Below, piece by piece: positions 8,201 through 11,200 of a stretch of 16,900 nucleotides of DNA. Position 1 is the stretch's first letter. Every line of letters starts with the position of its first letter. The position numbers are program-made. Source of the DNA: a virus. Its lineage: Duplodnaviria > Heunggongvirae > Uroviricota > Caudoviricetes. The DNA lies in the IMG/VR virus record IMGVR_UViG_2724679238_000014, positions 1 to 16,900 of that record. One strand, given 5' to 3'.

Positions 8201-11200
8201 CCTCCCAGACGCTTAAACATTTTCCCGGACTGAAAAGCCACCAGCGGATAACTCAGGGTATGAGTACGCCCCTGAATCTGGCAGACAACCTTCTGGCTTT
8301 CTGTATTGACCAAGCAAACCCGCAGAACGTGGCCGTTGCTGGTGGTGAACCACTGCCCCACACGGGGGCAACGGTTGTATCGGTGATACAGGGAATTAAC
8401 GACGCGGCGAATCATGGGCGCACCTCCCATTGATTACGGTGGAAAGCGGTGTGACTGAGGCTGATTTCTGCCTCATGGAATGCTTCAATGCAGCTCTCGT
8501 AGTACCGCATTGTGCGCAGACTTAACCCAAGCTGAAGCATCATCAGGACATCAAGGGTGATGTAATAACCACGCAGGGAGTCACCATAGATGTGATAAGT
8601 ACCCGGTATGAAATTGCGGGTAAAAAATTCGCGCGAGCAGTTCAGATACTCGATTTTGTCGACGATGTTCTGGTGCATGCGCTTGAAATGGCAGGCAACA
8701 TGCAGGGAGAAAATAACGGCCTTGCCGTTGACGACTTCGATTTTCAGGTATGGGGAAGTTGGGACTGTAGCCATGATGGCAGCCTCCGATAACAGTGAAT
8801 TACCTTCACCACCGGAAACGCCAATTTCGCTGGTGGTGAACTGAACGGGGTTGGCGTAACCGGCGTTATCGGAAACCGGCGCACCTTTCGGTGCCCCCGT
8901 CCAGCCCACCATAATTTGGGTGTGCGCAGACGCAGACGATAAAAAAGACGCTGGCGCGTCATATATCGCCGATAACATTTCCAGGACGCCAATCCCGGCA
9001 CCCGCTTTATAAGGTGCTTGGACAGTGTACCGTCCCGAAATTGCAGAATCAATATTTAGGCTTGAAACATTCATATGCTTACTGGTATTTTTGTTAACGT
9101 TCTTGGATTCTTGGGCCTGCTTTATGCAGTTGCCTGTATCAACGTTGAGCGAGCCGGGTCACTACCCGGCTTTTTTTCACCGCTGCCAGCCAATAACCTG
9201 AAATAACCCCATTTTCGGGTGATACCAGCGAGTCCCTCGCGGTTCTGCTTCCTCCATAACCCGATAAAAAGCAGCCATAAACGGTTCCACGGCAACAATT
9301 GCGCGACGTGATAACAATCCGTCCGGCGTCATAAACTCGTGGGTATCTGTAGGAATTTGATAAGCGTTCACCAGATTGCGGCATTTATCATCTGACAAAC
9401 CGGTTTTTGCTTTCAGTTGGCGATATCCGGCATAGCCCTCACGAATAGTGCCCTTTTTGATTTGCTCGACTGTTTCAGCAACGTGGCTGACTTTTTCTTC
9501 CACCTGAGTGATCCGTTTCTGCTGGCGAACAGCTTCAAGAGCCATTGCAGCAACCATTTCGATTTCGCTCATTGGCTTACGGATCTGTTCTTCCAGTTCG
9601 CGCCAGCGATCTACCAGGCGGGCTGTGAATTCGGGGCAAAGCTGAGCGACAACAATGATGCTGTCGCGTTTGCCTCGTTCACCTTCGAAAAGATAATGCT
9701 TACTTTTTTGAGTTAAACCTAACCCATTGATATTTTCAGAAATCCCCATTGGGGGAAGCTGAATAATCCTTCTTTCAGCAAGGCGCTCAATGGATTGTTT
9801 AACTTTGTCATGGCGGCTGCCCACCAGCTCTGCGATTTCAACACTGGTCATGGATGCTTTGCCGTTAAAAATTGCGGTGTTCACTGCCATCTCCTTACGG
9901 ATAAATTCTTTTAAAATTCCGCACATTCGTACTTGTTGGTGCCGAACCTTCCTTTAGTTATCCTTTTGATCCCTATAAACAAAAGAACCAAAGGAGGTTC
10001 GACATGTCACAAAAAAACGATATTCCTGTTTTTCCTATTACAGCCTGGCAGGCTGGACCATTGCCCGGTTATGGTGCGCTAGCATTAAAATTCCAGTACC
10101 TGGCTTCCCCTATGCAACCACTGGATTCAGCACAAGAAACTCAGTTCTTCGCGCTTACTCCCGAAATGGCTGAGACTTTGATCTCCGATCTGCGCCGACA
10201 TATTGAGACGCTGAAAAAATCCGGTATTCACAGCCCACAAGAAAACAGGCATTAATCGAAAACACGGTTGCCACATAATTTCTTGAAAAGCGTCGCGCAC
10301 TGGCGCTTTTCATTTCTCTACGATCAACAAGCATGCACTTCACTTCACCTCCCCCGTGCGCGCTAGACTTGGATTTGAAATTTTGCGTAACGAATCAGGA
10401 ATTCCATCTTCAGGGTGAGGATAAAGATCTGGCCTTAAGCCATGTGGCGTGACTTTCCATGCAACTACTTCACATACGCGTAAAACAAAACGAGCAGGAA
10501 TTGTGTTTTTTGAAAACCACTGATTCACCGCTTGCGGCGTCACACCAAGATTTCGCGCTATGGCATTTTGCGCAATTAATGTACGAAGTTTGTCGTAATC
10601 ATTTCCTTTCATAACAAAGCACCAACATTAACTTTATGAATCAAGAATACATCAAGTTTAAATTAACATGCAAGTTGCAAAAGGATCGAATACACTAAAA
10701 TCAAGTAAAGATTTATCCTTGTAAAGAAACCCACAGGATTTGGTCATGAAGAACGTCAAAAACACGGAAAATCGAATAGCCGCGATGCTGAAAGCAAAAG
10801 GATGGACTCAGGCTCAACTTGCCCGCAAGTTAGGCGTGAGTGCGCAATCAGTGCAGTACTGGACAACAGGAAAAACATTTCCACGGAGTGATAAGCTCGC
10901 GCATTTATCAGAGATTAGCGGTTATCCACAATCCTGGTTCTTAGGTGAAGACTCCTCACCAACCTTTTCCTCGCAAGAGAAACACCAGACAAGAACAGAT
11001 AGCGTCGTGTTTAATGTCCTTGATGTTGAGTTTAGTTGCGGTGATGGAACTCATGTCCGTGGTGACTTGATAGATGTAGTGCGCTCAATAGAACTTGATC
11101 CTGAATATGCCCGACGTCTTGTTGGAAATCGGGCATTCAAAAATATAGAAATAGGTAACGCCAGAGGAGACAGTATGGCTCCCACAATCTCACCTGGCGA

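Follow-up and report, generated by a model that had tools for sequence, protein, structure and literature searches.

Organization of the rha-IsrK/C4 joint

The 16,900-nucleotide (nt) stretch analysed here, hereafter the window, comprises positions 1 to 16,900 of the IMG/VR virus record IMGVR_UViG_2724679238_000014 (Duplodnaviria; Heunggongvirae; Uroviricota; Caudoviricetes), and this study concerns a spacer of 120 bp that lies in it between the gene rha and a cassette for the two small RNAs IsrK and C4 (Table 1). On the minus strand the genes are arranged in the order cro-like gene, rha, spacer, ash/IsrK/C4 module, a 79-amino-acid (aa) open reading frame (ORF), a DnaD-like gene, a 295-aa ORF and a 463-aa ORF, and the neighbourhood as a whole is a lambdoid early region. 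The spacer itself is likely to be a small transcription unit of the opposite, plus strand, with its own promoter, a predicted transcript of about 80 nt and a strong terminator. We rate the odds that the spacer yields a discrete plus-strand RNA acting in cis as about even.

On the cassette side of the spacer, IsrK, the IsrK terminator and C4 follow one another in this order on the minus strand, and both RNAs scored above their Rfam gathering thresholds, which identifies the stretch as an IsrK/C4 cassette. The promoter P_isrK lies upstream of IsrK, 6 nt from the start of the Rfam match, and its block was conserved in all isrK cassettes. Since the Rfam-supported IsrK and C4 lie within what had been regarded as a gene for a 220-aa protein, the cassette is identified from its sequence as an antirepressor switch of the type known from P1 immI, P4 CI and the isrK-orf45-anrP locus of Gifsy-1. 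In Gifsy-1, P_isrK gives rise to the short IsrK and to a read-through RNA with a processed C4/CI-like RNA (STnc1160) and the antirepressor gene, and in Salmonella this IsrK/C4 switch controls the antirepressor and a toxic antiterminator (PMC4825925). A preliminary description of this DNA had proposed an RNA antisense to the junction between rha and the 220-aa gene; the predicted plus-strand RNA is indeed antisense to the junction that follows rha, but the supposed partner, the minus-strand ORF at 8412-9074, holds the IsrK and C4 RNAs.

Table 1. Features at and around the spacer, with coordinates as positions of the window
Feature	Position	Strand	Basis and remarks
Candidate -35 hexamer TTGAAA	9062-9067	+	Promoter scan; kept in types A, B and C
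Candidate extended -10 TGgTATTTT	9083-9091	+	TATTTT 9086-9091, TG 9083-9084; TGaTATCTT in type C
Predicted small RNA	9097-9177	+	About 76-82 nt; ends inferred from promoter and terminator
Conserved decamer GTTCTTGGAT	9099-9108	+	Predicted 5' end; same in types A, B and C
Central stem-loop (SL1)	9112-9136	+	Sequence differs from type to type; forms on the minus strand just as well
Intrinsic terminator	9151-9177	+	Stem of 8-9 bp, loop CACT, T7 tract
P_isrK	9052-9024	-	By eye: TTGATT 9052-9047, 17 nt, TACACT 9029-9024
IsrK RNA	9017-8941	-	Rfam RF01394, 63.7 bits (gathering threshold 50)
IsrK terminator	8960-8947 + T6	-	Terminator scan
C4/CI-type antisense RNA	8916-8829	-	Rfam RF01695, 82.8 bits (gathering threshold 45)
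'ash family' ORF (220 aa)	8412-9074	-	Pfam Phage_ASH, residues 16-108; weak Phage_pRha, residues 123-203
rha (Rha-family regulator)	9177-9926	-	Pfam Phage_pRha; homologues annotated by the Prokaryotic Genome Annotation Pipeline (PGAP) as 'Rha family transcriptional regulator'
BssS-family gene, 83 aa	10004-10255	+	Pfam, 57.7 bits; strong Shine-Dalgarno (SD) sequence
Cro/YdaS-like gene	10612-10340	-	
CI-like repressor	10740-11435	+	
295-aa ORF	6481-7368	-	Unassigned; homologues annotated ATP-binding protein
463-aa ORF	5093-6484	-	Homologues annotated replicative DNA helicase

A predicted plus-strand terminator at the foot of rha

The hairpin at 9151-9177 ranked first among the terminator-like sites of the window. 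On the plus strand it reads GAGCCGGGT-CACT-ACCCGGCTT followed by Ts, and its stem is made of eight Watson-Crick pairs, A9152-T9171 through T9159-A9164, six of which are G-C, with a G9151·T9172 wobble at the base. The T-run occupies 9171-9177, and its final T doubles as the opening base of the stop codon of rha (TGA, 9179-9177). By sequence the site is an intrinsic (Rho-independent) terminator, as defined by a G+C-rich stem of 5-14 bp, a short loop and an immediate U-tract. A strict scan of both strands, which asked for at least 8 Watson-Crick pairs including at least 6 G-C pairs, a loop of 3-8 nt and T7, returned this site as the sole match in the window, and when the whole window was shuffled 1000 times with dinucleotides preserved, 0.3% of the shuffles had a site of this strength on either strand; a terminator of this strength at this place is unlikely to have arisen by chance. 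On the minus strand A7 comes before the hairpin and CGCTCAACGTTG after it; lacking a U-tract, the hairpin is not a terminator in that direction. The preliminary description, which had read an 8-bp G+C-rich stem with T7 at 9152-9177 as a plus-strand terminator and had noted that no U-tract accompanies it on the minus strand, was borne out on both counts.

No plus-strand gene in need of this terminator was found, the family-matching ORFs between 387 and 9074 all being on the minus strand. The earlier statement that all neighbouring genes are minus-strand has to be corrected for the BssS-family gene, which is on the plus strand and points away from the site; as this gene also has a terminator of its own at 10284-10312, the hairpin was rejected as the terminator of a plus-strand gene.

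A candidate promoter divergent from P_isrK

About 80 nt upstream of the terminator, the segment 9062-9091 has the sequence of a sigma-70 promoter of the extended -10 class (spacer of 16-18 nt, TG one base before the -10): TTGAAA and TATTTT are 18 nt apart, and together they match 9 of 12 consensus positions. It was the only promoter-like site in the window that carried the extended -10 TG. The pairing of TTGAAA with TATTTT at this distance had been noticed before, with the hexamer placed at 9060; it begins at 9062. The -35 starts 10 bp from P_isrK, so that the two promoters stand back-to-back, and the ATG of the ash ORF falls between the -35 and the -10. Inside the spacer no minus-strand promoter for the ash ATG was found, either by scan or by eye.

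The predicted RNA

From this promoter and the terminator we infer an RNA that would start at about 9097-9099 and end at about 9174-9178, giving a length of 76-82 nt, in agreement with the earlier estimate of roughly 80 nt; the corresponding lengths are 87-93 nt in spacer type B and 83-89 nt in type C (the types are defined below). The predicted fold consists of the central stem-loop and the terminator (-30.7 to -31.1 kcal/mol, z-score -3.3 to -3.9). With rha the RNA would share the stop codon only (9177-9179), and at its other end it falls 23 nt short of the ash ATG (9074).

The candidate RNA is, judging from its reading frames, non-coding. A 43-codon hydrophobic ORF from an ATG at 9075 was rejected as a small plus-strand protein because it starts before the -10 and traverses the terminator; the ATG at 9075 becomes ATA in type C. 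An internal ATG/GTG frame was rejected as a gene for want of an SD sequence and of a stop codon before the terminator, and among types A-C (24 variants) no conserved ORF was present in the plus-strand unit. An operator shared between the spacer and the cI-cro or cI-pL regions was also rejected, the only common sequence being a type-A-specific 9-mer that we took as chance.

Spacer types and their distribution

Loci were collected by anchoring on the 3' end of rha (112 stretches from IMG/VR) together with loci from phages and Escherichia coli, which gave 121 copies of the anchor. Distinct spacer sequences numbered 24. The segments that follow rha include types A (the window), B and C, all with promoter and hairpin; type D (Stx2_499 and Stx2_12E129_yecE), an unrelated segment of about 190 nt without the hairpin; and type E (phiP27), in which the gene ant follows rha. 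A few other loci have a next gene that overlaps the stop codon of rha. The rha-P_isrK slot behaves as a swap site, and in type D (L006 1300-1500, L007 1555-1750) it holds a 56-codon minus-strand ORF (MQVLNRWFRDGRGRRVHIIRW...) that ends in the P_isrK -35.

The isrK cassette is common to SfV (orf37), ST64B (sb41), 2H10, cdtI, mEp460, phages carrying the Shiga toxin (Stx) types Stx1a or Stx2c, and others, and in all those phages the homology ends at about 9055, just outside the P_isrK -35. When P_isrK was used as the anchor, the cassette was found behind many other upstream sequences, and the hairpin in none of them. Promoter and terminator were both present in types A-C and both missing from type D and from other isrK contexts, which argues that the two travel as one block of about 120 bp that occurs only between this rha and P_isrK. 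Among 5426 complete E. coli genomes, types A and B were present in 33 and type C in 204, a total of about 237 (about 4%), and the carriers include O103:H2 12009 (type C), several O157:H7, O26:H11 and O111 strains, and strains of sequence type 131 (ST131). E. coli MS8345 and 377323_2f have a spacer 100% identical to that of the window.

Conservation of the candidate promoter and the terminator

Between types, the rha 3' end and the P_isrK block were near-identical, and the spacer was about 78-83% identical with indels; identity in the middle of the RNA was about 55-60% among the three types, again with indels. Within the diverged part the conserved islands were TTGAAA, TCATAT (which contains the ash ATG), TG-n-TAT-n-TT, GTTCTTGGAT, GTTGAG with the hairpin stem, and the T-tract. 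The stem with a tract of 6-8 Ts was kept in 24 of 24 variants (T7 or T8 in 23, T6 in one), and in variant L002 the top pair of the terminator is changed from T-A to C-G. The decamer GTTCTTGGAT, for which no second copy was found in the window, was altered in a single variant out of 24. Each type folds its own stem-loop plus terminator (z-score -3.3 to -4.5).

For the promoter, the -35 TTGAAA was the same in types A, B and C while both of its flanks vary (it reads TTGGAA in 1/24 variants), and the TG and five of the six -10 positions were the same between types A and C. With the promoter positions defined on the window alone and then compared with type C over 43 ungapped columns, 13 of 14 promoter positions were identical, against 14 of 29 other positions (Fisher one-sided p = 0.004). 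The TTGAAA hexamer cuts across ash codons whose amino acids have changed (MNVSSL vs MIISRP), so that coding constraint does not explain its conservation.

Another member of the same rha slot, phiP27 (L008 2340-2444), has a plus-strand terminator of unrelated sequence, GGCCGG-N9-CCGGCC followed by TTTCTTATTT, which again abuts the rha stop codon, and a promoter, TTGATT-18-TGaTATTGT (by eye, 8/12), located inside the start of the next gene, ant (L15). This unit is predicted to give an RNA of about 60 nt antisense to the SD sequence and GTG start of ant, in the manner of P22 sar. The recurrence of one layout at the same joint in unrelated sequence suggests that the layout is functional, and it is the best indirect argument for it.

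Comparison with known phage antisense RNAs

The preliminary description had likened the spacer RNA to OOP of phage lambda, for which the 77-nt reference (NC_001416 38675..38599) was used here. Global alignment scored marginally above shuffles (frequency 0.04), with the score coming from the terminator, and the candidate gave no Rfam match; a lambda OOP homologue was rejected, there being no sequence relationship. The likeness is one of arrangement. OOP and the predicted RNA are both short, of similar size and oriented counter to the pR operon. In each case the promoter falls at, or within, the beginning of the gene downstream, a strong intrinsic terminator stands close to where the upstream regulatory gene ends, and the unit sits between early regulators and replication genes. 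On the other hand, OOP is antisense to 55 nt of the coding sequence of cII, which ends at 38653, whereas the candidate would overlap rha at its stop codon only; the upstream gene is cII in lambda and rha here (Phage_pRha, not CII); and downstream lambda has the replication gene O, in place of which the window has the IsrK/C4 cassette with its own promoter 10 bp away in the opposite direction. The proposed parallel therefore stands for position and layout, but not for homology, for a cII-like coding overlap or for the downstream partner. The OOP duplex is cleaved not within cII but in its intercistronic part (PMC5869508).

For P22 sar, too, homology was absent, as no Rfam family, sar included, matched the plus strand. 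According to Liao et al. in 1987, sar is reportedly a small antisense RNA of the arc-ant intercistronic region (immI), and its promoter is said to lie at the 5' end of the antirepressor-type gene, with termination beside the upstream gene. By analogy of layout, sar would be an equally good counterpart of the candidate RNA as OOP. It differs in covering the ribosome-binding site and start of the antirepressor gene, whereas the candidate starts 23 nt upstream of the ash ATG, and in belonging to a late-region immI moron, whereas the candidate lies in the early-right operon. In this respect the predicted RNA of the phiP27 slot is the more sar-like, because it would cover the ant SD sequence and start codon.

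The third system, IsrK/C4 (P1 immI, P4 CI, Gifsy-1), is the immediate neighbour of the candidate, its promoter P_isrK being 10 bp from the new one, and the two may form part of one control node; unlike IsrK and C4, the candidate is encoded by the opposite strand and falls beyond the limit of cassette homology at about 9055. A divergent RNA of this kind has not been described in Gifsy-1, where antQ lies upstream (PMC4825925). Literature on Gifsy-1 IsrK, Salmonella prophage transcriptomes, Hfq-CRAC (cross-linking and analysis of cDNA) in enterohaemorrhagic E. coli, P22 small RNAs (sRNAs) and a 2025 review of phage sRNAs reported no RNA at a rha-adjacent position; the Salmonella prophage transcriptome paper describes an OOP-like RNA in BTP1 at the cII position. 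Taken by its sequence and layout, the spacer RNA is plausible as a phage cis-antisense small RNA, a candidate of a known kind that is a member of neither the OOP nor the sar family.

A proposed cis-acting RNA and the alternatives

The explanation that we favour runs as follows. The extended -10 sigma-70 promoter at 9062-9091, divergent from P_isrK, would initiate an RNA at about 9097-9099, either constitutively or in a manner coupled to P_isrK. The RNA would consist of a short conserved 5' segment and one stem-loop, and would end at the terminator, the U-tract of which adjoins the stop codon of rha. The one target evident for this RNA lies in cis. The RNA would be fully complementary to the approximately 80 nt left untranslated after the rha stop codon in the early-rightward (pR-type) transcript, by which rha is joined to the ash/IsrK/C4/antirepressor-like module. 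The duplex would probably be cut by RNase III, by analogy with OOP, and cutting would remove the 3' hairpin that protects the rha mRNA, expose its 3' end and uncouple rha from the downstream module, while convergent (head-on) transcription could add interference. A direct translational block such as that of P22 sar is not predicted, because the RNA stops 23 nt short of the ash start.

Several results weigh against this explanation. The predicted RNA covers no ribosome-binding site and no coding sequence. When it was compared by RNAduplex with every 60-nt window on both strands, nothing rose above shuffles except the cis-antisense site, and neither did its complementarity to IsrK and C4 exceed the shuffled background; no trans target was thus found in the window, and no special complementarity to these two RNAs. 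A sponge role was rejected on the same grounds, as there was no extra pairing with IsrK/C4 or elsewhere in the window. On the plus strand no Rfam family matched the candidate, the only hit being a chance one to SorY (17.8 bits against a gathering threshold of 111, with E values admitted up to 10); a full-text literature search with the hairpin sequence gave no match; and among the genome matches listed, only the two flanking coding sequences, and no non-coding RNA, were annotated under the match. The promoter match by itself (9/12) is ordinary and constitutes weak evidence, since promoter-like sites as a class were not enriched in the window (24 found against 28 expected); the support for this promoter comes from its conservation and not from the match alone. 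As for conservation, the spacer types number only three and are closely related, and since the hairpin directly adjoins the 3' end of rha, itself highly conserved, hitch-hiking may account for part of the conservation of the hairpin.

Nor did the RNA structure settle the strand. RNAalifold on a MAFFT alignment detected no real covariation, the terminator being misaligned and the other helices invariant, and both stem-loops fold as well on the minus strand (z-score -3.8 and -4.8). Where substitutions would give G·U pairs on one strand and A·C mismatches on the other, variant L021 (C to T in the 5' arm of the terminator) and the GAGGT variants of type B pair on the plus strand only, whereas the GGAAC and CAGAGC variants of type C and the C·A/U·G position of the type C stem favour the minus strand. 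This strand test is mixed, so that it is the T-tract and the promoter, and not the RNA structure, that underlie the call of orientation.

A first alternative is that the unit serves as an insulator only: the AT-rich region upstream of P_isrK would fire functionless divergent transcripts, the hairpin and T7 would halt them before they reach rha, cro, the immunity region and cI, and the short RNA would be a by-product without a target. Such a by-product could well have a poorly conserved body, as is the case here (three types, about 55-60% identity in the middle, indels), and no trans target or pairing with IsrK or C4, and the back-to-back placement of the promoter with P_isrK is likewise in keeping with it. 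So is the hairpin itself: a scan of genome contigs with the hairpin pattern matched unrelated terminators from many phyla, so that the sequence is a generic one, shared with many unrelated bacteria, and the scan is uninformative about distribution. The isrK cassette in its other contexts, including type D behind the same rha, however, has no such terminator, which indicates that P_isrK in general needs none. The retention of the -35, the TG and the -10 amid changing bases is also unexpected for a spurious promoter, and conservation extends to the 5' decamer GTTCTTGGAT and to the GTTGAG that precedes the hairpin. We regard an insulator without further function as possible but unlikely.

A second alternative places the function on the sense strand, where the two hairpins between rha and ash would be a 3' stabiliser of the processed rha mRNA or a processing site, the A7/T7 and the promoter match being incidental. 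This would leave unexplained why a T-tract of 6-8 accompanies the stem in 24/24 variants and why a conserved -35 and extended -10 lie at the right distance from it, as well as the L021 change in the terminator stem and the GAGGT variants in the type B stem, which pair only on the plus strand; in phiP27, moreover, a different hairpin at the same place is again T-rich on the plus-strand side. The equal folding of both stem-loops on the minus strand (z-score -3.8 and -4.8), the better central stem of type C on that strand (U·G for C·A), the two type C variants that pair only there and the position of the hairpin directly after the rha stop codon, the usual site of a protective 3' stem, all speak for it, and on balance we hold it to be quite improbable. 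Finally, a promoter and a terminator left over from a lost plus-strand moron and now without function, an origin that would suit a swap site occupied in other phages by a 56-codon ORF (type D) or ant (type E) and a plus-strand BssS moron with its own terminator 830 bp away, is very improbable, because three diverged types retain the promoter elements and a homopolymer of 7-8 Ts that would be expected to decay quickly without selection, and because about 4% of complete E. coli genomes carry the element.

The prophages concerned occur in about one in 25 complete E. coli genomes and include Stx2-converting phages; if the cis-acting RNA is made, their early region contains a further regulator that has so far gone unannotated. 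If the proposal as a whole is true, it would represent a further instance of the OOP/sar design, a small counter-transcript at an intercistronic joint of a lysis-lysogeny operon, built from unrelated sequence, and the phiP27 variant suggests that this design arose more than once at the same slot. A bolder version of the proposal, which we put forward as speculation and consider rather doubtful, is that the RNAs form an undescribed prophage sRNA family with three types in about 4% of E. coli genomes (among them Shiga toxin-producing E. coli of serogroups O157, O26, O103 and O111, and ST131). As a third RNA of the IsrK/C4 switch, such an sRNA would be made divergently from P_isrK in lysogens, pair with pR read-through, gate early transcription into the antirepressor-like module and so set the induction threshold of prophages, some of which carry Shiga toxin genes.

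The ash frame and the wider neighbourhood

The Phage_ASH span of the 220-aa ORF (residues 16-108) coincides exactly with the stretch occupied by IsrK and C4, and the annotation 'ash family protein' hides two Rfam-significant RNAs, as the spacer hides a probable third. No stop codon interrupted the ash frame over at least 150 codons beyond P_isrK in 86 of 94 distinct cassettes (loci L001-L197), even though the frame contains two RNAs and the terminator of IsrK; this stretch may be both RNA and protein coding. In some other contexts the ash frame has a strong SD sequence (GGAGGTG) before its ATG. For the corresponding stretch of Gifsy-1 only a 45-codon ORF has been described (PMC4825925).

The rha ORF is 249 aa as listed, against 235-237 aa in its homologues, so that translation probably starts some 12-14 codons further downstream than 9926. 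Between cro and rha, the BssS gene looks like a moron inserted against the early operon; the hairpin that follows it at 10284-10312 has a stem of 12 bp, and E. coli E92 carries this gene as well. Immediately behind the cI-like gene, a plus-strand terminator (AACGGGC-TTT-GCCCGTT with T8) is followed by the best promoter match of the window, TTGACA-17-TAATAT, and this segment (11447-11527) is probably the pL region. At the other end of the window there are two adjacent minus-strand tRNA genes at 2124-2274 (73.8 and 64.9 bits) and a 7-bp G+C-rich hairpin at 2661-2678 that is terminator-like on both strands. In Stx-type phages the tRNA/moron area usually lies upstream of the lysis genes and downstream of Q, and the tRNA genes and this hairpin are the usual area of that kind.

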